A DNA stretch of 64,000 bases. Origin: a virus. This document shows, one piece after another, positions 1 to 64,000 of the stretch. The stretch lies in the IMG/VR virus record IMGVR_UViG_3300042196_000093; one strand, written 5' to 3'. The position numbers and the translations under genes are program-made. Within the stretch, counting starts at the first letter, position 1; each line of letters starts with the position of its first letter. The notes below the pieces were generated by a model that was given only the letters and a program-made list of their open reading frames with translations, was not told the DNA's origin and searched no databases.

Positions 1-643
1 ATTTTGCCCGGTAGTCATTTTCCGCTTCCTCGATTGGTGAGCCGAACAGATTCACACGAGTGTAATTGTCCTCCGTCATCTGGAGCCCAGACGGGTCATG
101 GTCGCCAAGGTGGAAAATGATTGGCGTCTGGTCTGACTGTCTGTAACCGATCATGCGACGACCGGCCTGCCACATCGCTGAGGCACTGGCGTAGCCACGA
201 CAGACGAGGTAAGGCACCTGCAACCGGCTACATGCCCGTCGAACAATATCGCTCAGGGCATCCTTCTCCACCCAGACTTCCGGCTTGAATGGCTGTGTGC
301 TCCACTTGTCGAGTCGGAATTTTTCCGCAAGTTCCGACATGGCGGCAGGCACGCTGTCGTACATCTGCCACTCGTTCAGTTCGCGCAGGCGGTCAGTCAG
401 GTGGTCCCAATCTATCAGACCACGCTCTCTGCCTGTGGAAATTGCCGTGCCAAGATTGTTGTAACTCTTGGACGTGTTCGGGATCATGTCTCGGCTGACC
501 ATCTGGTAGAATAACTGACGCAGCGTGAGGATGTAGCCCTTCTCGCTGTACTCCTCCAGAATTTCATTGGCACGCACGATCATCACCATCGTGCTGTTGC
601 GCAAGCCGCTCCGGCCTTGGCCAGTGTAGTCGATACGTGGCAT
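1..643 (-). CDS. Topoisomerase VI subunit A / Spo11-like TOPRIM protein (partial, runs off the left edge; absent from the ORF track)
   Basis: Manual translation from ATG 643 (SD GAGGT) is open to base 1: MPRIDYTG...TLRQLFYQMVSR...GLIDWDHLTDR...DKWSTQPFKPEVWVEKDAL...VCRGYAS...IFHLGDHDPSG. This gives a winged-helix Tyr motif, the TOPRIM Glu (EKD) and DxD (DHD). Confidence 0.75.
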   Translation of the reverse strand, partial: MPRIDYTGQGRSGLRNSTMVMIVRANEILEEYSEKGYILTLRQLFYQMVSRDMIPNTSKSYNNLGTAISTGRERGLIDWDHLTDRLRELNEWQMYDSVPAAMSELAEKFRLDKWSTQPFKPEVWVEKDALSDIVRRACSRLQVPYLVCRGYASASAMWQAGRRMIGYRQSDQTPIIFHLGDHDPSGLQMTEDNYTRVNLFGSPIEEAENDYRAK

Positions 644-647
644 TGGT

Positions 648-920
648 CTACCTCTTTTTTCTTGGACCCATCTTTGGAAAAGATGCAGCCGTGATCGGCG
701 CATCAACATTATCTTGCTTCCACTTCTTTTCCGCCTCGGCCATAGCCGCCTCGGCTTCTTCACGACTGGACTTGTATTTTCCTACTTGATGAATGCGCCC
801 ATCGCTTTTACGACAAAGAAGAATCCAAGCGCAATTAGTCGAGGGCCACTCAAGCCCAGCCGCCTTCATCGCATCTCGTGCTTTCTTACCGAACACAGGT
901 TTGACGAAGAACTTCGCCAT
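648..920 (-). CDS. hypothetical early protein
   Basis: Track ORF 648..1013; start moved to ATG 920 behind GAGGAGTAGGAAA. Confidence 0.7.
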   Translation of the reverse strand: MAKFFVKPVFGKKARDAMKAAGLEWPSTNCAWILLCRKSDGRIHQVGKYKSSREEAEAAMAEAEKKWKQDNVDAPITAASFPKMGPRKKR

Positions 921-924
921 TTTC

Positions 925-1344
925 CTACTCCTCCGATCCATTACCCTGTTCATACAAACCGCCAAGAATTTCCGTCGCTTCTTCATCCAACGGCGTGTAT
1001 TGGTTGGTCTCACGAGCCAGCAGATACCGACGAGCGAAGTCTTTGTTCAGGTCGGATTTATTCCCTGCTGCGAGCGCAGCGAGAGCTTTGTCCAACTGCG
1101 GCCATGTCGGGCCGGTCGTGACCGGATGGAAGACTTCAACACGGAATCCCTCATCGTGCAGGCCAGCACGTTCGCAAAGCATAAGGACGATCTGCCCACC
1201 GACGTTCCACTTTTCCAGCACGCCGCCCTGCGTCAGCTTGATCTGGTCAATGCACAGACCGGTGGCGTGCTTGCGGATAAGTTCGTCCGCCTTCTTGTAG
1301 TTCTCGTGATCGTAGAAATTCAGCTTAGGTTTAGACTTTGCCAT
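925..1344 (-). CDS. hypothetical early protein
   Basis: ORF track, SD GGAGAG, tight packing with neighbours. Confidence 0.75.
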   Translation of the reverse strand: MAKSKPKLNFYDHENYKKADELIRKHATGLCIDQIKLTQGGVLEKWNVGGQIVLMLCERAGLHDEGFRVEVFHPVTTGPTWPQLDKALAALAAGNKSDLNKDFARRYLLARETNQYTPLDEEATEILGGLYEQGNGSEE

Positions 1345-1346
1345 GA

Positions 1347-1739
1347 CTAGCTCTCCTTGAGTGCTCGCTCGGCCACGTCAGCGGCCCAATCATCAAACTG
1401 CTGGTCCTTGCCAAAAAGGCCCGGAGGATATTCACCATGCTCGGCGCAGTAGTCGCGTGCCCACTTGATGCGTTCCAACGCCGCAACCTTCTGATTCATC
1501 GGTGTCACCTTCTGTTCGAGCGCCGCGTCGATTCGCTTGTTGGCTCCTTTGACTTCCACAATTTTGAAAAGCCAAGCCAAAGCACCTTTGGACTTGTCAA
1601 AGGCTTCTTGAAGCTCTGTATGAAATTGTCGATGGAACGCTTCACGCAGAGTCAAACCGACGTACTCCGGCTTGTGTTCGACAACCTGTTCGTCATCGCT
1701 TGCTTCACGGTCGAACTGAACCAAGATACTGTAGCTCAT
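1347..1739 (-). CDS. hypothetical early protein
   Basis: ORF track, ATGA overlap with upstream gene. Confidence 0.7.
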   Translation of the reverse strand: MSYSILVQFDREASDDEQVVEHKPEYVGLTLREAFHRQFHTELQEAFDKSKGALAWLFKIVEVKGANKRIDAALEQKVTPMNQKVAALERIKWARDYCAEHGEYPPGLFGKDQQFDDWAADVAERALKES

Positions 1740-1984
1740 TTCCTTTTCCTCCTCGGCTTGCGCTTCATCACTGCATAGGCATCGGCCAGACGCTGGCCGA
1801 ACTTTGCAAGATTTTCAACAGTCTGCTCCTGCTCAAGCTCACGAACGATGAACTGACCATCTACCATAGTGCATGTGAACGCTAGGAGCGCCCACCCTTG
1901 CACAGTGCTGTCTACATCCAGCACTGGCATACGGACGATGATCTGCGATTTTCCTTTGATGGTTTGAATTTCGACCGTGATCAT
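1736..1984 (-). CDS. hypothetical early protein, basic C-terminus
   Basis: ORF track, ATGA overlaps at both ends. Confidence 0.7.
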   Translation of the reverse strand: MITVEIQTIKGKSQIIVRMPVLDVDSTVQGWALLAFTCTMVDGQFIVRELEQEQTVENLAKFGQRLADAYAVMKRKPRRKRK

Positions 1985-2190
1985 GCGCTGTCTTTCAGCA
2001 CAGACAGACGAGCACGAATTTCCAACAACTCCTCGACGTTGCCCAGCAGCACGCCCAGCGCCTGTTTCTCCAACGAGCGGTTGACATCGTTGTGGTGCTT
2101 GAACAACTGGACAGAGTTTGAAACGATCAGGCGCTCAAGCTCTGTCTTCCGAGCATGGAGCGCCTGCTTGTGGGATTCTTTTTCCGACAT
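1981..2190 (-). CDS. hypothetical coiled-coil early protein
   Basis: ORF track, SD CAGGAG. Confidence 0.7.
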   Translation of the reverse strand: MSEKESHKQALHARKTELERLIVSNSVQLFKHHNDVNRSLEKQALGVLLGNVEELLEIRARLSVLKDSA

Positions 2191-2202
2191 AGCTTTCTCC
2201 TG

Positions 2203-2619: not shown

Positions 2620-2628
2620 GGCTTCTCC

Positions 2629-3048: not shown

Positions 3049-3050
3049 GG

Positions 3051-8006: not shown

Positions 8007-8192
8007 TCACTTTTTCCTTCCAATACGAATGTCATCCGGGTAGCCGTCGTGGTCGATGAGACTGCTTCGCACGTAATCAGCATCGCAGTCCGCGTCATAG
8101 AAAACGATGTCGCTGTGAAGCCTTACGATTTTCCCATTGCGGTCGTGACGCCACCCCTGCTTAGAGGTGACTAACCAAGCCTGACTGCGCAT
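8007..8192 (-). CDS. small hypothetical (61 aa)
   Basis: ATG 8192 behind GAGGAGTAGGAAA. Confidence 0.65.
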   Translation of the reverse strand: MRSQAWLVTSKQGWRHDRNGKIVRLHSDIVFYDADCDADYVRSSLIDHDGYPDDIRIGRKK

Positions 8193-8196
8193 TTTC

Positions 8197-8361
8197 CTAC
8201 TCCTCCTCTCCCTCAAGCTCTCGAACCAACTTCCTCAAAATAGGCACAGGCATTTTTTGCAACAGCGTTTCAATCAAGTTCGAGTAACCGTCGATGTCAG
8301 TCTCGACAAGTTCCCACACTCGATCACGCAAAGGTTTCCAGTCGTGGTGTCCCATTGCCAT
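8197..8361 (-). CDS. small hypothetical (54 aa, MAMGHHDWKP...ELEGEEE); not in the ORF track
   Basis: Manual translation; fills the gap exactly between two GAGGAGTAGGAAAATG junctions. Confidence 0.7.
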   Translation of the reverse strand: MAMGHHDWKPLRDRVWELVETDIDGYSNLIETLLQKMPVPILRKLVRELEGEEE

Positions 8362-14397: not shown

Positions 14398-14589
14398 CTA
14401 CGCGGCGACGGCGGGCTTGTAGATGTTCAGGCCAATCTTGAAGCCCTCGTGGGCACCGGGGATGCCCTGATTGCCTTCACTGCTGCTGATGATGATGCTC
14501 TTGCCGGTGCTGGACAGACCGAAGTCCTTACCCAGATCGACCTCGATCACCAGCTTGTTCTTGACAACCTTCATGTCCACGTTTTTCAC
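14398..14589 (-). CDS. small conserved hypothetical (LVIEVDL.K.FG.SSTGKSIII.SSEGN)
   Basis: GTG 14589 after AGGAG; pattern recalled from small uncharacterised proteins. Confidence 0.7.
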   Translation of the reverse strand: MKNVDMKVVKNKLVIEVDLGKDFGLSSTGKSIIISSSEGNQGIPGAHEGFKIGLNIYKPAVAA

Positions 14590-14613
14590 AGCTTGTCTCC
14601 TGAAAATGAAAAC

Positions 14614-14632
14614 ACCCCTCAACGTGAGGGTA
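14614..14632 (-). terminator. probable intrinsic terminator
   Basis: ACCCCTCA-acg-TGAGGGGT stem; GTTTTCATTTT follows on the minus strand. Confidence 0.55.
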
Positions 14633-14658
14633 ACGGGAAAATGACTTTGACTTGCGCC

Positions 14659-14892
14659 CTACAGCCGGGGCGCTGCGGACAGAGCGTACCAATCTACGGC
14701 AGCCTCCTCGATGTTGCCGTCATGCTTGCGGCGAGCACGAATTTCCAGCTTGTCCCAGCACTCGCCAAAGCTCAGACCATTGAGTGCTGCGAGCACACGG
14801 AATTCCGGTCGCATGAACATTTCCTCACGCGACGGCTGACGCACGGGAGCGAACAGAGATTCAAACCGCTTACGGGCAATGACGGTACTCAT
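14659..14892 (-). CDS. small hypothetical
   Basis: ORF track, SD CCCGGAGGGG. Confidence 0.65.
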   Translation of the reverse strand: MSTVIARKRFESLFAPVRQPSREEMFMRPEFRVLAALNGLSFGECWDKLEIRARRKHDGNIEEAAVDWYALSAAPRL

Positions 14893-14966
14893 GGGTTTCC
14901 CCTCCGGGTTGAAAAACGAATATCCTCCAGCACCGAACCGGACGGCGCGATGCTGGAGGGCAACCG

Positions 14967-15146
14967 TTAGGCTGCCCGGATAATTGATTCCTGAATCGAC
15001 TGAATCTGACGGGTAAGCCGCTGGAACTCTTTTTCCAGTTTGGCGTACCGTTGTGGCTGCCAGTCACGGCCAGCCTTGACCATTGCCTGTGCAACCTCAC
15101 GACGGGCAGACCTGAACATTTCCAACGCACCGGGCAGAGTTTCCAT
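14967..15146 (-). CDS. small helical hypothetical
   Basis: Start refined to ATG 15146 after AAAGGA. Confidence 0.6.
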   Translation of the reverse strand: METLPGALEMFRSARREVAQAMVKAGRDWQPQRYAKLEKEFQRLTRQIQSIQESIIRAA

Positions 15147-15176
15147 GACGGACAATCCTTTCAGTGTGTAACGAAC

Positions 15177-15217
15177 GAAAAAAGCACGGGCTTGGGGGAG
15201 GTGGCCCAAGCCCGTGC
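15177..15217 (-). terminator. intrinsic terminator
   Basis: 13-bp stem GCACGGGCTTGGG/CCCAAGCCCGTGC with 8-nt loop, followed by T7 on the minus strand. Confidence 0.85.
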
Positions 15218-15272
15218 GGCAACGACAAGCAGCACCGTCGCCGGTGCTTGCTTGTGAGGGTTTGCCTAGAGT

Positions 15273-15743
15273 CTATGGCATTGTGGCGGAAATTGTGAAT
15301 AGGTCACAATTCACCGCTTGCAGTTTCAGCAATTCCTGTAGCTTGTCTCCACGTGGGCAGAGTCTCCACAGTCCCGCCCGTAGTCTGTCCGGGTTAGTGG
15401 GGTTTGACAGTATGCCAGCGTCAAACCCCATGAGGGTTTGCACTGTTGCCAGAATATCCCTAATCCGCGCCTTACCCGGCCCACTAGCCTTGACTGTTTT
15501 CCAGTGGGGGAAGTGTAGGAATATGGCAGTGGTCACGGGGCAATACCGCTCCACAGTTCCATCAGCCACAGTGGGAATCACTTCCCCTGTAGTCACGGTG
15601 GGGGACAGCGTGCGGCCATCGGCACGTTTGCCCCAAGTGACAGTTTCCCCTGCCAAGTGGACAGTGGTCAATCCGCCCGTTTGCAGTACCCTGTGGGCAG
15701 ACCGTCGCACGCACTTGGCTTTCGCCTGTGCTCTACTTTGCAT
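15273..15743 (-). CDS. putative immediate-early hypothetical with atypical codon usage
   Basis: ATG 15743 after GGAGGG; terminator downstream. Confidence 0.55.
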   Translation of the reverse strand: MQSRAQAKAKCVRRSAHRVLQTGGLTTVHLAGETVTWGKRADGRTLSPTVTTGEVIPTVADGTVERYCPVTTAIFLHFPHWKTVKASGPGKARIRDILATVQTLMGFDAGILSNPTNPDRLRAGLWRLCPRGDKLQELLKLQAVNCDLFTISATMP

Positions 15744-15838
15744 ATTCCCTCCAGTCTCGCACGGCCTCCACGGAGACAGTGCGGCACGGGACAGAACGCA
15801 ATTACCAATCCGCAACGGGGCTTTGCCCACAGAGGGAC

Positions 15839-15871
15839 TACGGGGGCAAGGGGTTTAGCCTTGCCCCCGTA
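15839..15871. repeat. 13-bp inverted repeat TACGGGGGCAAGG / CCTTGCCCCCGTA
   Basis: Read directly; just downstream of the 15878 stop; no U-tract. Confidence 0.85.
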
Positions 15872-15877
15872 TCGGCG

Positions 15878-16138
15878 CTACTTGTCGGCAACAGGGGGAA
15901 GGGTCACGTCCTGTGTCAGTGACCGGATACCGTCATCGGTCACAACCTTGGTGGAGACCCGGACAGTCTCACCGGACAGGATTGCCAGTCCCTTGTCAGC
16001 GTCAGCCGCATTCATGGCGGACAGACCCTGCTTGGCATTCACCAGTTTGGTGTAAGACTTGCCGGTGAGAGTATCCTTCACCGTCAGCTTGCCGCCCTTG
16101 GCTTGTGACGCCAGTGCAGCCTTCATCAAGTAACTCAT
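15878..16138 (-). CDS. first gene of the early operon, basic hypothetical
   Basis: ATG 16138 after GGGAG. Confidence 0.65.
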   Translation of the reverse strand: MSYLMKAALASQAKGGKLTVKDTLTGKSYTKLVNAKQGLSAMNAADADKGLAILSGETVRVSTKVVTDDGIRSLTQDVTLPPVADK

Positions 16139-16149
16139 GTTCCAGACTC

Positions 16150-16470
16150 CCTGTATCAGTGCCCCTAGTGGGCGGCGGTTTTTGGGCAACCCCTACGGCG
16201 GCCCTTCTCGCGTAGAAGTTTAGCAATTCCCCAAAAAAAGGGTATAGAAATCTGGCAGCTTTTTTTTGATATGCCCGCAAAGCCACCCGTAGAGCGGTTT
16301 TGAGGGCTTTTTTTGGGGCGGTTTTCTATATCATAATGACGATATATGTTGACCCGTCAAGAGTTTTTGGGCCAAAAAAACGGACACCATTGACCCGTCA
16401 ATGGTGTCCTTTGTCCGCCCAATTTCCTCCACGGTTGGTACTTTTGGGCGTCCCAAAAAAGTGGTGTTAG
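16150..16470. promoter_or_regulatory. early control region: A/T tracts, two TTGACCCGTCAA palindromes and a candidate leftward sigma70-type promoter
   Basis: TTGACCCGTCAA at 16349-16360 and 16390-16401, the second inside GGACACCATTGAC-CC-GTCAATGGTGTCC. On the minus strand TTGACG is followed by CATTAT (16-nt spacer) or TATGAT (19-nt spacer). Confidence 0.6.
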
Positions 16471-16483
16471 GTTCGATCCTGTT

Positions 16484-17497
16484 TTAGCTATCCCAGAACC
16501 AGTCGGGTTCGCCAGCCTTGGCGATGACCTGTCTCCGGTCCTCTGGAGTAAGATCATTCCAGTCGATCTTCTTTCCAGAGGCTGCAACAGGCAATGTGCA
16601 TAGCAGAGCTTCCTTCCCGAAGGCACGCACACCGTGGTAGAGGTCCACGGCCTTGTCACGGGCGTCGGTGTCGAGCCCAATGTAGATACGCTCCGAAGGA
16701 TGCGTGACGATCTGAAATATCTGCACAGGCGTGACGCCCTTGCCAAACGTAGCCACACCGGACATCCCCACCTGATCGCAGGCCCACGAGTTGAAGCAGC
16801 CCTCAGTCACGCACAGGGCCTTGGCATCCTTGTGCTTCTCAAGGTTGTAGACCAGAGCCTTGCGGGAAATCTTCACCTCATCATTGCGCGGGTTGTTGTA
16901 CTTGATGGGCTGCGTCTTGGTGTAGTCCCATGCCTGCCACCAGACCAGTTCGTTGCGGAAATACACAGGCAACACAACTCGCTGATCCCACCTGCCACCA
17001 AAGCCCCAGCCTGCCCTATTTTCCACAATCTGTTGGTAATCGAATCCACGCTTCGCCAATGCTTGGATCATGGAAATTACCATTTCCTCCTCGACCTTAT
17101 AGACAGGTTTTCCCCAACCGAAGAACTGAGTATTTTCCGGCACGACCTGATTGCTTTCCTGCACGGCTGGGAGCGCGGAAAACTTCTGCGAGAGCCCGGC
17201 GAATATCTCCTTGAAGGCGTCGGCTGGTTGGATGAATTCACCCGCCTCCACTCCCAAAATAATGCGGGCTTGTTTGCGCTCTACACTCTTGACGTGCTCG
17301 ATGATGCCGTAGGCGCTGCCGCCCTCAAGACAGCGGTAGCACGTGAACTGAGCGGTTTCCTTGTTGACCCAGAGCGTGGCTTCATGGCCGCAGAAGCAGC
17401 AGTCACAGATCATCTCGTCGCCGGTCGTGTACTTGTAAGAGAGTTCGCCGTAGACGAACTCCATCAGCTTGCTCTGGTTGAACCATCTCTTAGCCAT
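16484..17497 (-). CDS. DNA primase (Zn finger plus TOPRIM)
   Basis: CCFCGH...CYRC Zn finger; TEGCFN and IGLDTDA TOPRIM motifs; next to the helicase. Confidence 0.9.
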   Translation of the reverse strand: MAKRWFNQSKLMEFVYGELSYKYTTGDEMICDCCFCGHEATLWVNKETAQFTCYRCLEGGSAYGIIEHVKSVERKQARIILGVEAGEFIQPADAFKEIFAGLSQKFSALPAVQESNQVVPENTQFFGWGKPVYKVEEEMVISMIQALAKRGFDYQQIVENRAGWGFGGRWDQRVVLPVYFRNELVWWQAWDYTKTQPIKYNNPRNDEVKISRKALVYNLEKHKDAKALCVTEGCFNSWACDQVGMSGVATFGKGVTPVQIFQIVTHPSERIYIGLDTDARDKAVDLYHGVRAFGKEALLCTLPVAASGKKIDWNDLTPEDRRQVIAKAGEPDWFWDS

Positions 17498-19946
17498 GAG
17501 CCGCACCCGGCACAAAGCGGGACATCATGTTCATCACGTTCTCCGCCTGCCTCTCGGCACCGGCAGCCCCCATGTGGCGTTCGTCTTCCTCAAGGCGCGA
17601 GAGTTCGTAGAACATATTGAAGCCGACCTCGACGTACTTCCTCTGGTTACGGTTCTTGGCGAAGAAGATTCTGCCACGGTTGTTCGCCTGCTCAAGCTCG
17701 GTCTGGCAGTTGCTGACAAGAACTCCACTAGCTAAATAAAAATTGTGATTGTCAGCCACCTCAATGTCCAACTGCTGCCGGTTCACACAGTCTGCCGGTT
17801 CGCTACTCGTGACCACCACTGACAAGGCCCCCATAGTCCCCCGTTTGATTGCGGGAAAATGAAACTGTTTTGTCCCACGTTTTACCGGCTTATGCGTCAG
17901 ATGTCTTTTCACCCACGAAAGCACACTACGACTGCTGGGCGCATCAAAGAAAGTCGCCCCATTATGGAACGTAGCATTCCACCCACGTGATCTGAACCAA
18001 GCCTTCAACAACTTACGCGACCTCACGGAAAACCCCTGTGTAGCGATGCGCACATAACCATGCCGGTTGATCGTTCCGTCATCCATCAACCAGACAGCCA
18101 TACCCAAAGCATCAAGCTGCCCCAACACACCCACTGGAATTTCCTTTTTTCCTTGTGGATAAAACTGCTCACGTAACTCATTCAACCACGAAGCGCGAAG
18201 CACACAAACACGCCCCTTTCGCTGACGAATCCGGTAGCCTTTGTACTCGGTTGCAGCGTGAGTAACCGTGTAGCATTTTCCTTCAAGCACATCAGCTTTC
18301 CAATCTGCATAGCCCTTCTGCGCCCAACCGTGCTCTACTTTCAGCCTCCCTGCGCGGTCGATATACCCATCCCCCAGCAAAGTCCCCAGCACTACTTGCT
18401 GCTGCTGTGCAGTAAACCTGTATCCATAACCCATGACCATTACACCCGGAGCTAGGTTCTTTGCTCTAACCTTCCTGCCTGATAGGAGAAAATACTCATG
18501 CTCTGGCGTGGTCAGTGTGGATTTTGAGGCACCGACCGCTGTAGTACGAACTCGCAGAAAACCGTTCTTAGGAGCAAGCCCATTGTGAAACCAACGAAGC
18601 AGCGGCTTCCACTCGTCTTTGCCTGTACTAAAATTATGACTCAGCACGCGCAGACCCGTACCAACGTGCTTCTTTAGGTCCAATATTTTGATCGGTCCTT
18701 TTTCCGTCAGCACTCGTTGATCACGATGCAAGCACAAGAACATGATGATGTCCGCAATGCCTGCCTTGCCGAAGTCCTCCGCCAGCTTGTCCAGATTGAT
18801 GCGCTCCTGCCCGACAGACTCCCGGTTGGTCTGCGTGGCCGTCACCACGGCAACATTCATGTCCACGGCCATTGCACGAAGGTCTGTGTAAATTTCCTGC
18901 AACTGGTGACGCCTCTCCTGCTGGTTGAATTGAGGACGCAGCAGATCGGCGTAGTCCACGACCACGCACTTGATCTTCTTCGGCGTCCGAGACTGAACCG
19001 CCATCACATAGTTCTCGATGTCATGGATCGTAGCCCGGCCAGCAGGAAATTGCTTGATGAACAACGGCGCTTGGTTCGCAGAAAAATACTTGATCCACTC
19101 CCAGATCACTGCCGGATTGTTCATCTCTGCCCACTTGCCCGGTATCGTGCGCACGATGTTCGAGATGATTTTCTGCATGATGAGCAAGGCACTTTGCTCG
19201 GCAGTGATGTAGATGACAGGCTCGCAGTGCTGTAGGAAGCCTGCGGCGAAGTCGCACATCACGGTCGTCTTGCCCGTGTTGGGTGGAGCGCCGACCACAG
19301 TCAACTCCTTCACGCCTACGCCGCCGCCCATCGTCCTGTCCAAGCCGGGCTTGCCCACAGGAATGAACTCACGAATTTCCGGCGTCCAGATGGTGTTCCA
19401 CGACTGCTCAAGGTTCAGGAACAGTTCGAGTCCAAGGTCTGAGCCTGCGTAGCCTATCTGGGCAATTTCCTGCGCCTTCCTGATGAGGTTGATCTGCTGT
19501 AGGTCTTTGCCTTGGTCGATGGCATTCTTCGCCTCAACCAGCAGGGACATCTCCGCACGCTTGCGCACCCACGCGAAGGTGTTGTCACGGACGTACTGCG
19601 CCTCATTCTGGATCAAGGGCTCGTCATACAATTTCCAGCAATAGTAATCGTAGCCCTGCTTGTAGTAGGACTGCCACTCCGACTTCACACCAGTCAGAGC
19701 GTTTGCAGCCCATGTCTGGAATATCATCTTCGTTGGCGGAGTTCTTGCCTGATCGAAGTATCCGTACACGACGCGGATTGCCGCCATCATGTACTCAGCC
19801 CCCTGCGCCTGCTGGTTGAAGAACTCCAGAGGCAAGTGAGGTTGAACGACCCGCATAAATTGCGGGTCGCGTACCATTAGCTTCACGACGGCTTCTTGGA
19901 AGCTGCCGGGGAAATTATTTTCCGGCGTCCAAGATTGCAGTGTCAC
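17490..19946 (-). CDS. dnaB: replicative DNA helicase, DnaB/T4 gp41-like, intein-containing
   Basis: GAPPNTGKT Walker A, VVVDYADLL Walker B, ATQTNR motif, FFAKNR arginine finger after the intein. Confidence 0.92.
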   Translation of the reverse strand: MTLQSWTPENNFPGSFQEAVVKLMVRDPQFMRVVQPHLPLEFFNQQAQGAEYMMAAIRVVYGYFDQARTPPTKMIFQTWAANALTGVKSEWQSYYKQGYDYYCWKLYDEPLIQNEAQYVRDNTFAWVRKRAEMSLLVEAKNAIDQGKDLQQINLIRKAQEIAQIGYAGSDLGLELFLNLEQSWNTIWTPEIREFIPVGKPGLDRTMGGGVGVKELTVVGAPPNTGKTTVMCDFAAGFLQHCEPVIYITAEQSALLIMQKIISNIVRTIPGKWAEMNNPAVIWEWIKYFSANQAPLFIKQFPAGRATIHDIENYVMAVQSRTPKKIKCVVVDYADLLRPQFNQQERRHQLQEIYTDLRAMAVDMNVAVVTATQTNRESVGQERINLDKLAEDFGKAGIADIIMFLCLHRDQRVLTEKGPIKILDLKKHVGTGLRVLSHNFSTGKDEWKPLLRWFHNGLAPKNGFLRVRTTAVGASKSTLTTPEHEYFLLSGRKVRAKNLAPGVMVMGYGYRFTAQQQQVVLGTLLGDGYIDRAGRLKVEHGWAQKGYADWKADVLEGKCYTVTHAATEYKGYRIRQRKGRVCVLRASWLNELREQFYPQGKKEIPVGVLGQLDALGMAVWLMDDGTINRHGYVRIATQGFSVRSRKLLKAWFRSRGWNATFHNGATFFDAPSSRSVLSWVKRHLTHKPVKRGTKQFHFPAIKRGTMGALSVVVTSSEPADCVNRQQLDIEVADNHNFYLASGVLVSNCQTELEQANNRGRIFFAKNRNQRKYVEVGFNMFYELSRLEEDERHMGAAGAERQAENVMNMMSRFVPGAAHG
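17709..18734 (-). mobile_element. intein with LAGLIDADG homing endonuclease (342 aa, residues 405-746)
   Basis: Begins CLHRDQRV, contains TPEHEYF (block B), VLGTLLGDG and VWLMDDG, ends DIEVADNHNFYLASGVLVSN followed by Cys+1; more AT-rich than the flanks. Confidence 0.92.
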
Positions 19947-20944: not shown

Positions 20945-21346
20945 ATGAAAAAACAAACAGTCAGTGTGATCACTGGAAAAGTCGCAGCCAAGAACGGCAT
21001 AGTTCCTTTCGCACAACTCCCAAACTGGATCATGGGTCTACCAATTTCCGGCGATGCCAAAATCATCTACTGCTTCCTCCACAGCCTCGCGCTGAAATTC
21101 AACAACAATGTTTTTCCTTCATACGAAACTATCGCTGGCCTAACTGGCGTGAGCATCAGGTCCATCAGCAACCATCTCAAAACATTGGAAGCAATGGCGG
21201 CCATAACCCGACAGCAGAGGCGAAACAAGCAGAAGCGAACTTCAAACCTCTACTTGGTGAATTTCATTCCACCAGAAAACCTCGAATATCTGGTCTTGCT
21301 GGCGACATCTAAGGCATGGAAACCCGGAGAAATAGAGTCTCTCTAA
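20945..21346 (+). CDS. winged-HTH replication initiator-like protein (HTH_36-type)
   Basis: FAQLPNWI...ISGDAKIIYCFL...FPSYETIAGLTGVSIRSISNHLKTLE...TSNLY is typical of phage initiator N-termini; iterons follow. Confidence 0.8.
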   Translation: MKKQTVSVITGKVAAKNGIVPFAQLPNWIMGLPISGDAKIIYCFLHSLALKFNNNVFPSYETIAGLTGVSIRSISNHLKTLEAMAAITRQQRRNKQKRTSNLYLVNFIPPENLEYLVLLATSKAWKPGEIESL

Positions 21347-21479
21347 AGGAAAAAATTGCCTGTAGCCTAAAGGCAAAAATTGCCTGTAGGTGTCACCACT
21401 CTGCTAAAGGCAAAAATTGCCTTAGAAAGACTTTAGGTAAACAGAGGTACTACCTTAGTAGTTCTTACGAACTACTAAG
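21343..21479. repeat. putative replication origin: three iterons plus an inverted repeat
   Basis: CTAAAGG(A/C)AAAAATTGCCT at 21343, 21367 and 21404, with internal dyad AGGCAA-AAA-TTGCCT; CTTAGTAGTTC-ttac-GAACTACTAAG at 21454-21479; AT-rich. Confidence 0.8.
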
Positions 21480-21508: not shown

Positions 21509-22915
21509 ATGCCGGTTACTTTAGTTGAAGACACAAACTGGACAGAGGTGTACGTCACGGATTATCCGGTGTCGAACATCCATGCAATTCTGGAATCCAT
21601 CCTGTCGGTGCCGCCAGTACAGGATGAAGAATTTCCAGCGTTCTTCCAGCCGGGCTATCCTTTCTTCATGCGTGGCCTCACGCCCTACGTCGTGCAGGAA
21701 TTGTTCAGGTACGGAATTCACACAGAGTGGCACCAGCGCCCGCGAGCATTGAACAACTACTCACCTTGCCCGGTGGAGTTCGGCAGGCCGTTGCAGAATT
21801 GGGTCGTGGACGAGATGCTCAAGCATCGCTACGGCGTCATCGACATTGCCACACGCTTCGGAAAATCCTTTGTCTACTTGCAGTGGTACTTCCGAGCAGG
21901 CAGGCCACGCACCTTGATCTTCGCCCCGACCGCAGACATTGCTGGTCAGATGCGAGAAGACTTCCGAAAAGTGACTGGCGAGCCGATAGGGATGGTTGCA
22001 GCTACTGTCCAGAAGGAACCAGACTGGCAGAACCTCACCATCTGCATTGAGAACTCCTTGTTCGATGGAAAATCAGGCGGGCAGATCAAGCCAGAATTTC
22101 TGCCGTACCTCGCTGCCTGCGAAGGCCGCATCCGCGATGAGTGCCACAAAGCAGGCAACATGCAGGCCAACGCTTACATGGCCATGCCCAATTGCATCTA
22201 CTCGTGGGGGAGCAGCGCGACTCCTCTGGTGGGTCACGATTACAAAGACTACGGCTTGATCGGCTGGCATGGGCCAAAGCGTGTGGAAATTACAGCAGCC
22301 TGCGCGGCAGCCTATGGCCTCCTTGCTCCGGTGAACGCTGTATGGCTGCCATTCCGCCACGACGGTGAAATTCTTTCAGAAGACTACGACGAGAAATACA
22401 AGTCGTCAGTTGTGCAGAATTTCCGGCGCAACCAGATGATCGCATGGATGGCACGCGAACTTTCAGAGCAGGGAAAGACCGGCTTGATCTTCGTGAATTA
22501 CAGCGAGCAGGGTCAGCGAATTGCAAACGACATCCCCGGCTCAATGGTCGTAGCCTCCGTGCTCATCAGCCAGCCCGAGGCCGACCTCATCAAGCGCCAG
22601 TTCAATTCCGGCGAGATCAAGGTAGTGTGCTGCACAAAGAAGTGGCGCGAGGGTGTGACCTTCAATTGCGACTTCGCCATCAATGCTGAGGCCATGCAGG
22701 CAGACCATGTGACGGTGCAGAAACTCGGGCGCGGCCTGATGCCAAGAACTGATGGGCGTCCGTTTCTGTGGGTGGATATTGATGATTATGGTGTAAAGAT
22801 GTTGCGTCGTTGGGCCGATAAGAGAAGGGACTGTCTCGACAACGAAGGCTGGTCGCAGACGAACTTCATGGACCCGCGTGCTTTTCAACGTGCCTTGCGG
22901 AGCGGTGAACTATGA
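21509..22915 (+). CDS. superfamily 2 DExH helicase, UvsW-like
   Basis: ATRFGKS, RDECH, SATP and QKLGRG motifs. Confidence 0.88.
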   Translation: MPVTLVEDTNWTEVYVTDYPVSNIHAILESILSVPPVQDEEFPAFFQPGYPFFMRGLTPYVVQELFRYGIHTEWHQRPRALNNYSPCPVEFGRPLQNWVVDEMLKHRYGVIDIATRFGKSFVYLQWYFRAGRPRTLIFAPTADIAGQMREDFRKVTGEPIGMVAATVQKEPDWQNLTICIENSLFDGKSGGQIKPEFLPYLAACEGRIRDECHKAGNMQANAYMAMPNCIYSWGSSATPLVGHDYKDYGLIGWHGPKRVEITAACAAAYGLLAPVNAVWLPFRHDGEILSEDYDEKYKSSVVQNFRRNQMIAWMARELSEQGKTGLIFVNYSEQGQRIANDIPGSMVVASVLISQPEADLIKRQFNSGEIKVVCCTKKWREGVTFNCDFAINAEAMQADHVTVQKLGRGLMPRTDGRPFLWVDIDDYGVKMLRRWADKRRDCLDNEGWSQTNFMDPRAFQRALRSGEL

Positions 22916-26350: not shown

Positions 26351-26351
26351 A

Positions 26352-41566: not shown

Positions 41567-42231
41567 TACAGCGTCCTCACGGTGGTTGAGGTCTTGACAT
41601 CACCCATGTTGTCAACGATGTGGGTTGCTTCGATCACCTTCTCCAGACCCACGTCGCTGTCGATGTCAGCTTCATCGAGAGACAAGTTGACGCCGCTGTT
41701 GAAAATCGCTACCTCGAAAGAGGAAAGCTGGCCAGCGAGATATTCCGACTTGCGCTGCTTCACGTTGTCGCCTGCTAGTCCCAGCGCCACCTCCAGAGTA
41801 TCCGTGTCCACAGTAGCCGTCGTGGCGTCGAAGATGTCGAGGTTCTGCTTTTCAAGAAACAGAAACTTGATGTCCACTGCCCTCCCTGTGGCAATTTCCA
41901 CCACACCGATCACGTAGAACTCGTCTTCTACAGGCAACGTCACCGGGTTGATGTAGAGCAGATCGTTGTTCACGTCGAAATTGATGAGGTCCGGGTTGCC
42001 GTCGATCTGCAAGGCCAAGTCCCACGCAGGCACAGTCCACTCCCCAGCAGGGCCTTCGGTCATCACCAGATAGCCGGGGTTGACTGCGTGCGCTGGGTTC
42101 ACGCGCTTGATACGAACCTCGTGCGTAGCCGTGGGGTTCACGAAGTCGTAGCCCGAGGCAATCGGCAGCGCGATCACGTCATTGTAGTGGACGTTCTGAG
42201 GGTCCAGCTTCGGAGAATCGAGCAAAGCCAT
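41566..42231 (-). CDS. virion structural protein
   Basis: Position; C-terminal LEVALGLAGDN motif shared with 42734..43312. Confidence 0.55.
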   Translation of the reverse strand: MALLDSPKLDPQNVHYNDVIALPIASGYDFVNPTATHEVRIKRVNPAHAVNPGYLVMTEGPAGEWTVPAWDLALQIDGNPDLINFDVNNDLLYINPVTLPVEDEFYVIGVVEIATGRAVDIKFLFLEKQNLDIFDATTATVDTDTLEVALGLAGDNVKQRKSEYLAGQLSSFEVAIFNSGVNLSLDEADIDSDVGLEKVIEATHIVDNMGDVKTSTTVRTL

Positions 42232-42737
42232 TAGACATGCCTCCAGATTTTCCTACGCCGAATCAAGCCGATAGTATCCGGGCACACGTTGAGCCTACGA
42301 GCTAGGACAACGCCTTGAAGTTTGCTTTTTCTAATGAATTTCACCAGCCGTGTCGTCAGCTTTGCACGTCCATGCTTATCGCCAATACTGGCAGTTCCAT
42401 GTCGTTTTTTGTCAGCGGCATTTTCCTGCGGAGTACCCCATTTCAGATTTCCGTGTTTGTTGTTCTTTTTATTCCTATGTAAATGCCGAGCTTCCATACC
42501 CGATGGGCATGGTCCTTCAAAGGCTTCTAACACAAGTTGATGAACCATTGGCTGGCTAACCAGACCAGCCACACACATAGAAACCTTCATGTAACCATTG
42601 CCTGTGGGGTGCTGCGTGAGTAATTTTCCACGGTAAACACGACCAAGACCGCCCGTTCTATCCAACGAACGAACTCGGCCACGATCTGAGACCTCGTAAC
42701 CCGGATACTTCTCGATTTTTCGCCACACTTCTTTCAT
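42231..42737 (-). mobile_element. NUMOD4-HNH homing endonuclease
   Basis: EVWRKIEKYPGYEVSDRGRVRS, VHQLVLEAF, RHLHRNKKNNKHGNLKWGTPQEN; AT-rich. Confidence 0.9.
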
Positions 42738-53170: not shown

Positions 53171-54406
53171 TTACGCAACAGCCGAGCAGGACGTGGCATT
53201 GCTCTGCACGAAGAAGTCAGAGAAGTTGCACGCCTGCACGAAGCGGCCACGACGACCGTCGCCGCCCGTCAGGATGGTGGCCTTGAGAGGGGCCATCATA
53301 AATTCCTGCGGGTTGACGGTGATGTTGCCGCCGATTTCGAGGTTCACACGATAGAACTCGTAGAACCCCTGCGGGCCGGACGTGGACAGAATCTGGAGCT
53401 TCATTGCGCCCTCCAGAACCTGACCGGACTGCAACTGGTACTCGACTGCTTCACGCTCGAAGGTGAACGTCACCTTCACTTCTGCGCCGTTGGGGATAGC
53501 CCCGTCCGCGATGCGCTCGATGGTTGCCGCAGCCGTAGCCACGAAACCACCGAAAGCAAACGGACCAGCGCCTACGTCGGCGATCAAAGCCGCACCAGTA
53601 ACAGTCACCGAGGCCGGGGCCGCGAAACTGAGGCTGTTGTGGTTGATCGTCAACACAGCGGCTGCCGATGTGGCGTGGTAGCTGCTGCTGTAGGCGTTGA
53701 TGGCTTCCGCATAGGCTGCCGCCAGTGCGGTTGTTGAACCGGCTGCCGCGCCGGTCTCCACTTCGGTGCCGCTGGTGATGACGGTCAACGTACCGTCATC
53801 CTCTGTCAACGTCAGGGTGTTGCCCGCCGCCGCCGTAAAGGTGGCGAAGGTCAACGTGGCAAAGTCGAACACACCCTGCACTGCCTGCGTGAAGGTGTAG
53901 TCTACCGTGTCGATGTAGGTGACGTTGCCAGCGACATTGGTGACGCTGATGAGAGTCAGATCGACCTCATTCAACGCACCCCCGTCAACGCGCTCCTGCG
54001 CGATGCCGGGTGCCACTTCGGACGGGGTTGTCCCGATCAGGCGAGGACGAGTGCTCTCGTGCCACACGCTGAGAGCGTTTGCTACGCCGTCACGAAGTAG
54101 GACTTGGGCTGGGCGGAACAGAAGTTCCAGATTGCGACCGACCACTTCCGAGAGGTTCATCGTCACTTCGCCAACGAGGTCGTTGATGAGGCGCTTGATG
54201 GTCTGGAAGGTGCCCTGTCGCGCTGACTTCTTTTCCGCGAAGGTTTCAGCGATGTTGATTTCAATGTCCGAGACATCGCCAAGCTCGAAGTATTCGGACT
54301 GGCGGCCCTGCGCATCAAACGGCGCGAACCACACAGAAATTCGTGACGGCAGCACGAGGTTCTGTGGGTTGAAAGGGCTCACCACCGAACGTCCGATGGA
54401 AGGCAT
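53171..54406 (-). CDS. major tail tube protein with inserted Ala/Thr-rich accessory domains
   Basis: YFELGDVSDIEINI N-terminal tube-like segment; upstream of the chaperones; followed by a terminator. Confidence 0.8.
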   Translation of the reverse strand: MPSIGRSVVSPFNPQNLVLPSRISVWFAPFDAQGRQSEYFELGDVSDIEINIAETFAEKKSARQGTFQTIKRLINDLVGEVTMNLSEVVGRNLELLFRPAQVLLRDGVANALSVWHESTRPRLIGTTPSEVAPGIAQERVDGGALNEVDLTLISVTNVAGNVTYIDTVDYTFTQAVQGVFDFATLTFATFTAAAGNTLTLTEDDGTLTVITSGTEVETGAAAGSTTALAAAYAEAINAYSSSYHATSAAAVLTINHNSLSFAAPASVTVTGAALIADVGAGPFAFGGFVATAAATIERIADGAIPNGAEVKVTFTFEREAVEYQLQSGQVLEGAMKLQILSTSGPQGFYEFYRVNLEIGGNITVNPQEFMMAPLKATILTGGDGRRGRFVQACNFSDFFVQSNATSCSAVA

Positions 54407-59675: not shown

Positions 59676-60677
59676 CTAGACGATCAGATCGCGGAGAGAA
59701 CCCAGCACGAACGGGTTCTTCACCTGCATCTGGCTGTAGGTCTTGGCGTGCATGACGTTGGCGTCACGAATGCCCGCATCGCGGGGGCTGATCGTGAAGT
59801 CCAGCAGAATCTTGTACTTGATGAGGTCCATGTCGAGGAAATCCATGCGGCCTTCCTCGAACAACGGAACACTCACCAGCGCAACGTCGTCAAACTTCAA
59901 CGCCTCGAAGCCGCCGACATAGCGGTTCGCGCCTCCGCCCGTGAGGGGGAAGCGACGGTCGCCTTGCAACAGGAGACCGTACTGCGTGAAGACGTTGGGC
60001 GAGCACAGGATGTGCGTGACGCGACCCTGACGAACTTGCCGAAGCTCGTTCATAATCTGGTGCATCAGGGCTTCTGTAAGCGGGCGCGGTGTACCGGGGG
60101 CCAGTGGGTTGCGGAGCACAAAGCTCTGCCACCACACGTCCACGGTACGGTCGATGCCCGCGTACACGGGAACATCGCCGCCGTCGTCGATGCCAGCCTG
60201 CAAGCCGGTGATGTCAAGTCCGGGGTTCAAAGCCGGGTTGACGCCGTTCAGGTTGCCATCGCCGTCGCTCAGGAGTTGCAGGTTCATGTTCGCCTGCAAC
60301 TGCTTGAGCGCCTGCTCGGTGTTTTCACCCACGGCGTCGATGATCGCCTTGGGGCTCTGCGTGATGGCCTGTGCGAGACCACTCACCTTGATCGGCACAC
60401 CGTTCAGCTTCCAGTCAAGCTGGGCCGTGGCGAAACGCTCGCCAAGGTCGGTGCGGTTGATGCCGATGTCGCCGTCCTCGCTGTACGAGCCCGCCGCAGG
60501 GTTGCCGCTGTAATACAGCTTCCAGCGGATGTCCTTCTCGACGTACTCCTCACGAGTGGGATTGAGCAGTTCCATGAACACGTTGTTGCGCACGAATGTG
60601 CGATAGAACGTGGACTCAAACTCCTCTTTCACCATGATGGCGGCGTCAGCGAAATTGAAGCCTGCAACGCCGGGCAT
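59676..60677 (-). CDS. major capsid protein (HK97 fold)
   Basis: 333 aa after a scaffold gene, strong SD GAGGAG, followed by a terminator; capsid-like GLQAGID...YAGIDR...WW and final GSLRDL. Confidence 0.85.
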   Translation of the reverse strand: MPGVAGFNFADAAIMVKEEFESTFYRTFVRNNVFMELLNPTREEYVEKDIRWKLYYSGNPAAGSYSEDGDIGINRTDLGERFATAQLDWKLNGVPIKVSGLAQAITQSPKAIIDAVGENTEQALKQLQANMNLQLLSDGDGNLNGVNPALNPGLDITGLQAGIDDGGDVPVYAGIDRTVDVWWQSFVLRNPLAPGTPRPLTEALMHQIMNELRQVRQGRVTHILCSPNVFTQYGLLLQGDRRFPLTGGGANRYVGGFEALKFDDVALVSVPLFEEGRMDFLDMDLIKYKILLDFTISPRDAGIRDANVMHAKTYSQMQVKNPFVLGSLRDLIV

Positions 60678-60742
60678 GTGCTACTCCTCAGTCCGATGAC
60701 AATTTCCTGCTAATCGCAGGGTAATGCGGTGCCCACTGATCA

Positions 60743-60794: not shown

Positions 60795-60821
60795 AATTTT
60801 CTATGGGTGTGTCAGGTGAAA

Positions 60822-61982: not shown

Positions 61983-61995
61983 GATCCAATCTCCT

Positions 61996-62898: not shown

Positions 62899-62912
62899 GC
62901 GGAAAAGATAGC

Positions 62913-63446
62913 CTACTTTCCATCCGCCCGCCACTCCTGCTTTTCGTTTGAGCCTTCAACCCACCACTGGAGCACGCCGTCCTTGAAGCTCAGGTAGTAG
63001 ATCGTTTCATGCTCAGGCAGGCGGTAGACCACGCGCCCTTGGATGGCGTGGTTCTTCTGGTAGATCGCATTGAAGTTCGGTGGCCACTCCGAAGGCAGCA
63101 TGGCGAAGCCTCCGAACGTGTCATCTACACCTTCTACCTCGCCGGGCGCGATGGTGATTTTCCTGTGCTGCTCAAGGGTGTCCTCAGTGGAGTGCGTGTC
63201 CGTCCAGCTTTTGTAATCCGGCATTACGCGGAAGGATTCCACGCCGTGCCATTGGCCAAGGTCGATCCACTGAATCAGGTGTGGGTCGTTCGTCGGACTC
63301 TGGAATTTCAGCTTGATCTTGTACCCGTTCTCCTTCACCTCGGGCTCCGAGGCCAAGTAGATCGAGACCTGATCGTGTGACTGATAGAGAGGAGTAGTTG
63401 TGCAGCCTGCGACGAACAGCAGGCATAGAACAAGCAACTTGCGCAT
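62913..63446 (-). CDS. lipoprotein
   Basis: MRKLLVLCLLFVAG-C lipobox signal. Confidence 0.75.
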   Translation of the reverse strand: MRKLLVLCLLFVAGCTTTPLYQSHDQVSIYLASEPEVKENGYKIKLKFQSPTNDPHLIQWIDLGQWHGVESFRVMPDYKSWTDTHSTEDTLEQHRKITIAPGEVEGVDDTFGGFAMLPSEWPPNFNAIYQKNHAIQGRVVYRLPEHETIYYLSFKDGVLQWWVEGSNEKQEWRADGK

Positions 63447-63527
63447 GGTTTTCCTCCGCCTACAGAAGACCCCGCTGGGACCGATTCCAGCGGGGCCATC
63501 AGGAGATTGGAATGGGCAGTGCCGTGG

Positions 63528-63803
63528 CTACCCTTCCGGTTTATCTACGGCTGGCTTGATCGCCTCGGCGACGACCTCAACAGCGGCATTGATCCCGCCT
63601 TTGCGCCATGCCGTCACGATGTCCTGTATGCCCTGAATCAGCATCCAGAGACTGCCTACGCCCGTGATGAGGTATGCCTGCAACTCCGGGCTGATCTCGA
63701 TGCCGAATGTCTTCAATTGCGTGAGGATGTAGACGAGCACAGCGGAGAAACCCAGCTTACGCGAGCGCAGGCGCTCAGGAATCAATTCCACAATCTTTTC
63801 CAT
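63528..63803 (-). CDS. holin-like membrane protein
   Basis: RSRKLG followed by two hydrophobic helices; ATG 63803 after GGGAGG. Confidence 0.65.
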   Translation of the reverse strand: MEKIVELIPERLRSRKLGFSAVLVYILTQLKTFGIEISPELQAYLITGVGSLWMLIQGIQDIVTAWRKGGINAAVEVVAEAIKPAVDKPEG

Positions 63804-63835
63804 TAGGATCACCTCCCTTTCTGTATCTACGCAGA

Positions 63836-63859
63836 ACGACCGCCTGTAAGGGCGGTCGT
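63836..63859. terminator. hairpin upstream of the holin
   Basis: ACGACCGCC-tgtaag-GGCGGTCGT; weak U-tract. Confidence 0.45.
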
Positions 63860-63918
63860 CTGTTTGAAGCCAAGGAAACAGGGCGAGAACCCATCACGTT
63901 CCTGTCCCGAAGGAAAGG

Positions 63919-64000
63919 TTAGCTTATGAACTCATCCACGGATTTCAAGCCGATGTCGGTGAGCTTGTCCACCAGTGGCTTTCCGAATGCCCCGAGGAAC
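63919..64000 (-). CDS. 3' end of a gene entering from the right edge (...FLGAFGKPLVDKLTDIGLKSVDEFIS*)
   Basis: Manual translation, TAA at 63919-63921. Confidence 0.55.
   Translation of the reverse strand, partial: FLGAFGKPLVDKLTDIGLKSVDEFIS

Follow-up and report, generated by a model that had tools for sequence, protein, structure and literature searches.

Genome-wide identity words such as Chi, uptake sequences, KOPS and HIP1 are rare cases of selection acting on the text of DNA, and the study of each has brought some molecular machinery to light. DUS in Neisseria, USS in Pasteurellaceae and HIP1 saturate cellular genomes in both orientations and in all reading frames. They bias the choice of codons and amino acids, become scarcer in genes under constraint, and are linked to competence or to methyltransferases. 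In cluster A mycobacteriophages the stoperators, asymmetric protein-binding words of 13 bp, recur about 25–35 times through the phage genome, mostly between genes and in one orientation relative to transcription. Chi hotspots have accumulated in the lambdoid phages LLS and MD8 (Zheng et al. 2025, PMC12315714; Bobay et al. 2013, PMC3784561): LLS has 23 Chi sites, one per 1.86 kb, and the Chi-rich phages show orientation ratios of 20:3 and 32:0, a clustering of the sites at one end and no recombination genes of their own (Zheng et al. 2025, PMC12315714). The removal of words is also described, as restriction-site (palindrome) avoidance in phage genomes (Rusinov et al. 2018, PMC6286503).

The window, that is the whole stretch of 64,000 nucleotides analysed here, belongs to a phage lineage of sludge and sediment that has not been cultivated, and iterates the word GGAAAWT (GGAAATT or GGAAAAT). 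This word resembles DUS, USS and HIP1 in saturating the genome in both orientations and all frames, in its effect on codon and amino-acid usage and in its rarity in constrained genes, but its carrier is a virulent-type phage lineage and not a cell; besides, HIP1 is a palindrome whereas GGAAAWT is asymmetric and A/T-rich. A HIP1-like iterated palindrome is ruled out by this asymmetry and by the lack of a methyltransferase among the proteins scanned. The likeness with stoperators lies in the many copies of one asymmetric word spread through a phage genome, but there are 144 GGAAAWT sites in 64 kb, mostly intragenic and in both orientations. Like Chi in phages, the word is short, far above chance, intragenic and thought to serve DNA, not proteins; by contrast Chi is oriented, clustered to one end, 4 times sparser and associated with missing phage recombination genes, while GGAAAWT is orientation-neutral, uniform, and found in a phage that has its own recombination module. 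Palindrome avoidance is seen in this genome too, shows a gradation among relatives that parallels that of the word, and is, like the word, written in synonymous codons; it removes words, whereas GGAAAWT is a gain that forbidding the removed words does not reproduce. Our literature search found no paper on the GGAAAWT word in phages.

A lineage-specific word under selection at the DNA level

Between positions 1 and 64,000 an exact count gives 144 GGAAAWT, 53 on the + strand and 91 on the − strand, with a mean spacing of 442 bp: 81 are GGAAATT (31 on + and 50 on −) and 63 are GGAAAAT (22 and 41). The sequence-only reading, which had tallied 75–80 and about 50 by hand, was close for the former and low for the latter; its base-composition expectation of about 5 GGAAATT becomes ~5.5 when recomputed, and its eight example coordinates (437, 967, 5152, 25864, 35281, 51052, 57002, 60701) are all true sites. 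The frequency of GGAAAWT is about 10 times that of chance, dinucleotide-preserving shuffles (n = 100) yielding 15.0 ± 3.8 copies with a maximum of 25. For GGAAATT, Markov models of order 1 and order 3 predict 7 and 18 copies, which rules out low-order composition as the cause; a maximal-order model matches the count because the constituent 6-mers are themselves enriched. The extension into a quasi-palindrome, also proposed from the letters, is borne out by 13 copies of GGAAATTCC and 5 of GGAATTCC; the symmetric 10-mer GGAAATTTCC has no copy in the window, the word being asymmetric.

The excess is a genuine selection acting on the DNA itself. When synonymous codons are shuffled within genes, GGAAATT is observed 48 times against 7.6 ± 2.7 on the sense strand and 28 times against 3.7 ± 1.7 on the antisense strand, and GGAAAAT 40 times against 7.6 and 17 against 4.3, i.e. 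a 6–7 fold excess on sense and on antisense. As claimed before, the sites lie on both strands and in different frames: the enrichment over the codon-usage expectation is 3- to 21-fold in all three frames and both orientations, and 44% (sense) and 30% (antisense) of the codable positions carry the word, against 5% expected. Codon choice follows the word closely: GAA-ATT occurs 50 times, GAA-ATC 16, GAG-ATT 4 and GAG-ATC 23; ATT-TCC is found 24 times and ATC-TCC never; and GAA is chosen in 61/69 cases in the context G_AT versus 6/28 in C_AT. These counts indicate that synonymous sites three bases apart are coupled. The idea that this genome otherwise avoids AT-ending codons fails for GAA, which makes 46% of Glu; the use of ATT is 30% of Ile overall, 76% after GAA and 15% after GAG. 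The E-I dipeptide itself exceeds its expected frequency by a factor of only 1.3, and codable positions are ~25% more frequent in trait-bearing genomes, which is an effect on the protein sequence. Since the enrichment holds on either strand and in every frame, and adjacent synonymous sites are coupled, a codon or dipeptide bias is ruled out; relatives with the same proteins but without the excess further support DNA-level selection. The sequence-only reading had argued for such a selection and named as its refutation the loss of the excess under a shuffle and outside the Glu-Ile frame; the excess survives the codon-preserving and the constrained shuffles, in all frames and antisense. The force on the word acts regardless of the reading frame and of the direction of transcription or replication. 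It suffices to displace the preferred Ile codon and to alter some amino acids, yet is so weak on each site that sites turn over and are rarer where codon bias is strongest.

The sites cover the genome uniformly and close to saturation (~1 per 445 bp), the largest gap between raw sites being 1923 bp. Their spacing is slightly over-dispersed: occupied sites are more even than random subsets of the codable slots (CV P = 0.04 and 0.03), and gaps below 50 bp number 3 versus 8.6 expected from such subsets in the window and 11 versus 17.2 in its 106-kb relative G001, this evidence standing at P ~0.02–0.05 per genome for two related genomes. Close pairs are few; an example, with sites separated by 17 bp, lies at 36376–36399 on the + strand. 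The evenness counts against a context-blind mutational or conversion drive. The lack of strand polarity noticed at first sight holds after normalisation for codability and relative to the putative origin (21343–21426, and its counterpart in G001): occupancy is 33–46% in all strand-by-side-of-origin classes, and the strand difference is small and non-significant (34/41% on the left, 40/35% on the right). A polar signal is thus ruled out, whether set by transcription or by the putative origin, as is a KOPS/AIMS-type word, there being no switch of strand skew at the putative origin in either genome.

GGAAAWT is a lineage-specific DNA word. G001, with about 70–75% amino-acid identity to the window phage, has one site per 449 bp, 236 copies of the word versus 3 of the same word backwards, and an occupancy of codable positions of 38%/38% (sense/antisense) against 5% expected. 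In further relatives the occupancy drops with phylogenetic distance (27/24, 15/7, 9/9, 2/5 and 0/3%, sense/antisense); the density fades stepwise and the outgroups are without excess. The graded relatives show the trait being built up, and the word is a practical marker for this phage lineage. When positions are compared between the window and G001, 31 carry a site in both, 13 and 21 in one only and 54 in none, a sharing above independence (odds ratio 6.1, P 9e-6). Between two close relatives of 93.5% identity, 18 of 25 motif sites are intact for 18.3 expected: sites are lost as fast as the surrounding sequence, which indicates a weak per-site constraint.

The purge of restriction-type words

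The near-total purge of restriction-type words is the most important context of the word excess, and one that the sequence-only reading had overlooked. In the window 42 of the 56 testable 6-bp palindromes are missing, as are TTAA and CCWGG, and CAAAT has one copy. The lineage thus fills 30–44% of the protein-permitted positions with one word while deleting nearly every restriction-type palindrome, and across relatives the depth of the purge and the word excess rise together.

Such a purge could leave a surplus of the words that remain allowed, once hundreds of restriction-type words are forbidden, or the surplus could come from a codon-pair or dipeptide effect. The list of losses speaks for it, and with CAAAT virtually banned, an A-run followed by T and preceded by a G/C base must begin GAAAT. 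Yet synonymous shuffles constrained by forbidding 210 or 333 absent words give 7.2 ± 2.4 and 6.3 ± 1.5 copies versus 48 and 47 observed, the excess is also antisense and in all frames, the dipeptide effect is small as seen above, and the relative L022 has the excess and still keeps CCWGG and CAAAT. The two constrained shuffles and L022 rule out a by-product of the forbidden words, and this origin as a whole appears hardly tenable.

How the word may be read

The full profile of the word is K-G-A-A-A-W-T-S, position 1 taking G (6.8x) or T (4.0x). Variants exchanging A/T for A/T are still 2.2–3 fold enriched, whereas G/C variants at positions 4–6 reach 0.5–1.0 of the expectation, i.e. they are excluded. 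A/T runs of exactly 5 are in excess (406 versus ~265) and runs of 4 and 6 are depleted. The 10–11 bp periodicity of A-tracts is absent from the window and G001 (spectral power 0.9–1.0 of the background), which rules out phased A-tract curvature or bending. The substitution profile, drawn from k-mer ratios, fits a minor-groove read-out. We tentatively regard the sites as dispersed docking sites for a candidate double-strand DNA-binding factor, with selection on their density, the likeliest of the readings considered here though short of probable. A sequence-specific protein would read the word on double-stranded DNA, with major-groove contacts to the first two bases at the 5' end (G or T, then G), and would sense the 5-bp A/T tract, which has no TpA step, by the narrowness of its minor groove. 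Selection would act on how well many redundant sites cover the genome and not on any individual site; the benefit could be genome organisation, or a marking of the DNA in a phage protected at the sequence level and not chemically.

The protein reading the word, if found, would reveal a new system by which phage and host, or the phage itself, are recognised. The 17 ORFs common only to the window and G001 have no Pfam/PHROG DNA-binding match except an O-like initiator, and the proteins scanned include no recognisable modification enzyme, nickase or coating protein. This initiator, at 20945–21346, had been pointed out as an orphan DNA-binding protein: it does have a lambda-O-like initiator domain, but its own iterons adjoin it and have a different sequence, short inverted arms (GGCA/TGCC in the window, GGCC/GGCC in G001) around AAAAT that are confined to that locus. 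An identity of the word with the origin iterons is therefore ruled out.

The word could instead be a passive imprint with no function for the phage, if the host genome itself were saturated with it, as with DUS/USS or HIP1, or if a repair or gene-conversion bias, of host or phage, pushed DNA toward it. Orientation neutrality, presence in all frames, changes of amino acids, rarity in the most constrained genes and site turnover at constant density are hallmarks of uptake sequences, and all are found for GGAAAWT; moreover the nearly identical densities of two diverged genomes (442 and 449 bp) look like an equilibrium, and the grading across relatives is as expected after host shifts. A context-blind drive predicts neither the scarcity of close pairs nor the over-dispersion relative to codable slots, and neighbours of the word that differ by a transition are as depleted as those that differ by a transversion, which rules out a transition-biased mutation signature and leaves no simple mutational one; besides, no methyltransferase or Vsr-like gene is seen in the annotated parts. 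We consider such an imprint unlikely. A Chi-like role, where the word would attenuate a translocating helicase-nuclease (host RecBCD/AddAB or a phage-private enzyme) so that cut or linear phage DNA is repaired and not degraded, could be useful in a restriction-rich host population. Chi enrichment is documented in phages (Zheng et al. 2025, PMC12315714), the joint rise of word excess and purge depth goes in this direction, and a logic of coverage is consistent with the mild over-dispersion. Against it, the features of Chi-rich phages are not found: occupancy is equal in both orientations everywhere with a uniform density, not predominant in one, and the phage does have recombination functions, with RecA-like, SbcCD-like, FEN and helicase proteins encoded at 21509–29461. 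Tolerance to A/T swaps is also unexpected for a base-specific recognition of single strands, and altogether this role appears quite unlikely to us.

A broader possibility is that of a sequence-encoded identity mark, a private label every ~450 bp telling phage from host DNA. The lineage would not modify its DNA chemically, as its need to purge restriction sites suggests, and a phage-encoded nuclease, helicase, replication or packaging protein would use the word, so that host DNA is destroyed or phage DNA preferentially processed; we hold this decidedly improbable. The word might also be a priming site, if the DnaG-like primase (gene at 16484–17515) needed or strongly preferred it to start Okazaki fragments, the genome then keeping one word per about 0.7–1.2 kb per strand. 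The observed per-strand spacing of 703–1220 bp is within the Okazaki fragment range, the 3' end W-T-S matches the N-T-N grammar, with its cryptic 3' base, of primase sites (GTC in T7), and a need for coverage fits the even spacing. This is nevertheless very unlikely: known primases require just 3–5 bases, we know of no genome enriched for its own primase site, strand preference differs between the two sides of the putative origin in the predicted direction but by a small, non-significant amount, and relatives that lack the excess also have the primase, at an identity of only 31–33%.

The host was searched by several ways. The phage has no megablast match in INPHARED, with protein matches of 22% only; it has no tRNA genes, and a profile search with the major capsid protein found nothing in 185,579 GTDB species genomes. 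Homologues of a tail protein are all metagenomic, and the runs point only to sediment and activated sludge. A three-site pattern search of IMG/VR for unrelated phages with the trait gave, among the matches listed, mostly tandem repeats.

Sites within genes and at start junctions

Sites are found in contexts as diverse as the sequence-only reading had described, including the intein, three HNH genes and start codons. GGAAATT at 437–443 (+) is antisense to a leftward gene, while that at 967–973 (−) is on the sense strand of a leftward early gene; another, at 25864–25870 (+), lies in the NUMOD4-HNH homing endonuclease gene (25832–26350), and three sites (17854, 18138 and 18275, spanning 17854–18281) are in the LAGLIDADG intein of the DnaB-like helicase gene. 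At 8191–8197 (−), GGAAAAT extends over the ribosome-site spacer into the opening AT of the start codon, at the junction TAGGAAAATG. This sub-class counts ~8 sites (919, 8191, 8360, 10168, 10349, 19917, 32497 and 38093), and a promoter or ribosome-site element is ruled out since the rest are intragenic in both orientations.

Sites are rarer in the structural genes with the strongest codon bias, and the motif yields to this bias in the major capsid and major tail genes. The former (59676–60677, −), with a GC3 of 0.81, has none of its 5 codable positions occupied, and the latter (53171–54406) none of 3; the leader upstream of the major capsid ATG has one site, at 60701–60707 (−), 23 nt from that ATG.

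Excess and anatomy of the word

The window contains 81 copies of GGAAATT and 63 of GGAAAAT on both strands, i.e. 144 sites of the word GGAAAWT, against 15.0 ± 3.8 in dinucleotide-preserving shuffles, so that the sequence-only reading rightly placed these words far above chance. When codons are permuted inside each gene, leaving every protein and the per-gene codon usage unchanged, GGAAATT is expected 7.6 ± 2.7 times in sense and 3.7 ± 1.7 times in antisense orientation; we observe 48 and 28 respectively, and GGAAAAT behaves in the same way. The source of the excess is a coupled choice between adjacent synonymous sites. The Glu-Ile pair is written GAA-ATT 50 times, GAA-ATC 16, GAG-ATT 4 and GAG-ATC 23; Ile-Ser is ATT-TCC 24 times and never ATC-TCC; and the GAA share of Glu codons, when the two following bases are AT, is 61/69 after G versus 6/28 after C. 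The enrichment over the codon-usage expectation is 3- to 21-fold in all frames and both orientations, which excludes a translational or dipeptide origin. Selection at the DNA level, proposed in the same reading, is thus supported. The absence of strand polarity, noted there too, also holds: we found none by transcription direction and none by the putative origin (21343-21426).

Ratios to the synonymous shuffles give the profile K-G-A-A-A-W-T-S. Position 1 accepts G (6.8x) or T (4.0x) but not A or C, and position 2 G alone; in the A/T tract, swaps between A and T keep a 2.2-3x enrichment, while G or C at positions 4-6 brings it down to 0.5-1.0x. The base 3' of the word is C or G at about 82% of sites. 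A/T runs of exactly 5 number 406 versus about 265 expected, lengths 4 and 6 being depleted, and AAA-ATT is almost avoided (2, versus 23 AAA-ATC). On principles of DNA recognition, the indifference between A and T, the exclusion of G/C and the dislike of TpA would fit a minor-groove reading of a narrow A-tract, and G-or-T at position 1 has the keto-group pattern typical of major-groove contact. A curvature test found no helical phasing of the A-tracts.

The phage, its relatives and the turnover of sites

The window covers 64,000 of the 66,976 bases of a metagenomic contig from sediment, with 55.3% G+C and a coding share of ~93%; genes at 1-20.6 kb and 31.5-64 kb point leftward, those at 20.9-31.5 kb rightward. 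No close cultured relative of this tailed phage was found, the capsid protein search recovered the family solely in metagenomes, and related DNA occurs in activated-sludge, bioreactor, sediment or soil runs. Most proteins lack family matches. Those recognised include an HK97-type major capsid protein (59676-60677), a major tail protein, a tape measure of 2869 residues, a DnaB-like helicase with a LAGLIDADG intein, a DnaG-like primase, a lambda-O-like initiator domain, a DEAD-box helicase, a RecA-like protein, a FEN-type exonuclease, an SbcCD-like pair and a sigma factor with region 2 only. Among the proteins scanned (window and first 20 kb of G001, a 106-kb IMG/VR relative), we recognised no gene for a methyltransferase, a Vsr-like protein or base modification. 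The truncated first gene (2-763) matches PHROG 6247, annotated 'DNA topoisomerase' (E 9e-60), without Pfam match; its homologues in G001 (73%, L005:1214-2164) and in the relative G002 (48%) indicate that it does not follow the GGAAAWT trait. G001 also encodes a family A DNA polymerase (1005 residues, L005:8292-11309), whose N-terminus weakly matches the uracil-DNA glycosylase superfamily.

G001 is syntenic with the window (proteins about 70-75% identical, DNA about 75%) and carries 236 GGAAAWT versus 3 copies of the word in reversed letter order, with a mean site spacing of 449 bp (442 bp in the window). Occupancy, the share of the positions permitted by the protein sequence that carry the word, has a baseline of about 5% from codon usage. 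It reaches 44% in sense and 30% in antisense in the window, 38% and 38% in G001 (capsid identity 94%), 27% and 24% in L020 (80%), 15% and 7% in L022 (76%), 9% and 9% in G003 (72%), 2% and 5% in G002 (74%), and 0% and 3% in L023 (56%). These values show a graded trait specific to the lineage. Codable positions are ~25% commoner in the genomes bearing it, and several sites involve amino-acid changes relative to a relative, e.g. Glu-Asp-Ile versus Glu-Glu-Ile.

Among 119 positions codable in both the window and G001, 31 are occupied in both, 34 in one and 54 in neither (odds ratio 6.1, P 9e-6), the chance of identical codons at three conserved residues being 26%. In a pair of close relatives sharing 93.5% identity, 18/25 sites are intact versus 18.3 expected from the flanks, with 7 losses and 7 gains, so that loss is not slower than in flanking sequence. 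Of all gene classes, the structural genes under the strongest codon bias are the least occupied (capsid 0/5, major tail 0/3); the head-tail module has 25% versus 41-47% in other regions. Together, loss at the flank rate and low occupancy in codon-biased genes mean that the pressure per site is weak, like codon selection; it is the density that is kept up.

Occupancy is also low at 14400-16480 (1/7), where two large gaps without called gene occur (15210-15877 and 16190-16483), the latter with a promoter-like stretch TTGACG...TATGAT. Three paralogous NUMOD4-HNH homing endonuclease genes (25832-26350, 37561-38094, 42231-42737) have a GC3 of 0.42-0.45, much below ~0.68 for comparison, and despite this they carry GGAAAWT and respect the word bans; G001 has one copy, and L021, another relative, one at another location.

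Purge of restriction-type words

The window lacks 42 of the 56 hexamer palindromes with usable expectation (166 occurrences in total versus 987 expected), as well as TTAA (0 versus 95), CCWGG (0 versus about 150-180), RGATCY, GAAGAG, CTGAAG, GAGCTG and ACTGGG. This purge is an extreme form of restriction-site avoidance, described in phage genomes (Rusinov et al. 2018, PMC6286503). For palindromes it is deeper still in G001 (225 versus 1691 expected), and across relatives GGAAAWT occupancy climbs in parallel with purge depth. The asymmetric pentamer CAAAT/ATTTG, one base different from GAAAT, the core of the enriched word, occurs once in the window versus about 130 expected and never in G001 (158 expected); in G002 and G003 it is at expectation or just moderately under. 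We know of no restriction specificity that fits CAAAT.

Which palindromes are exempt varies even among close relatives: G001 has normal numbers of GACGTC and ACGCGT, which occur 0 and 1 times in the window; TGATCA and CAATTG are normal in the window and missing from G001; in G001, CACGTG is cut to 4 versus 46 expected; and GAATTC, TGCGCA and TGGCCA escape the purge in both genomes. Farther relatives each ban their own, different subset.

Possible functions of the word

That GGAAAWT is a mere by-product of word avoidance appears highly improbable. A Markov-chain synonymous shuffle rejecting swaps that create forbidden words gave 7.2 ± 2.4 sense GGAAATT versus 48 observed when the 210 words absent from the window were forbidden, and 6.3 ± 1.5 versus 47 with a more stringent set of 333 words missing from both the window and G001, so that the surplus is no leftover of the banned words; besides, L022 already has the excess yet retains CCWGG and CAAAT. 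We tentatively favor an array of redundant docking sites: the word, in many redundant copies, would be read on duplex DNA by a putative sequence-specific factor. Spacing is more even than in random subsets of codable slots in both the window and G001 (CV 0.85 versus 0.96, P 0.04; 0.90 versus 1.01, P 0.03), and gaps <50 bp are few (3 versus 8.6, P 0.017; 11 versus 17.2, P 0.046). This points modestly to a coverage function, away from a context-blind mutational or conversion drive. A word passively shared with the host, or spread by conversion drive, seems unlikely to us.

A Chi-like nuclease attenuator is a somewhat weaker candidate. In Chi-rich lambdoid phages, Chi occurs once per 1.86 kb, with an orientation of 20:3 or 32:0, and gathers at one end, and recombination genes are missing (Zheng et al. 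2025, PMC12315714); the window phage departs from them in the orientation and distribution of its sites and in its gene content. Primase start sites, with which the grammar of the word is compatible, are improbable; no significant strand switch is seen at the putative origin, the small difference running in the predicted direction. The excess as such belongs to a known kind, the 'genome-wide identity word', in a form not described before: asymmetric, A-tract based, phage-borne, orientation-neutral and tied to a near-complete palindrome purge.

The region 20945-21426 is probably the replication origin. Its protein of 133 residues matches the DNA-binding N-domain of lambda-O/DnaD-like initiators (PHROG 270, Pfam HTH_36), and three 23-bp iterons directly follow the gene (21343-21365, 21367-21389, 21404-21426), with arms GGCA/TGCC flanking an A/T core. 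The corresponding site in G001 also has three iterons; their arms read GGCC/GGCC, which is a compensatory change. G002 and G003 lack the initiator gene. The dispersed GGAAAWT are not origin iterons, the sequences being different.

In an IMG/VR scan for triple GGAAAWT clusters, tandem repeats predominate among the matches listed. The unrelated A/T-rich viral contig L063 (IMGVR_UViG_3300011008_000049, 38% G+C) carries 32 GGAAAWT in 7.8 kb, 29/32 of them on one strand, a strand-specific pattern unlike that of the window phage.
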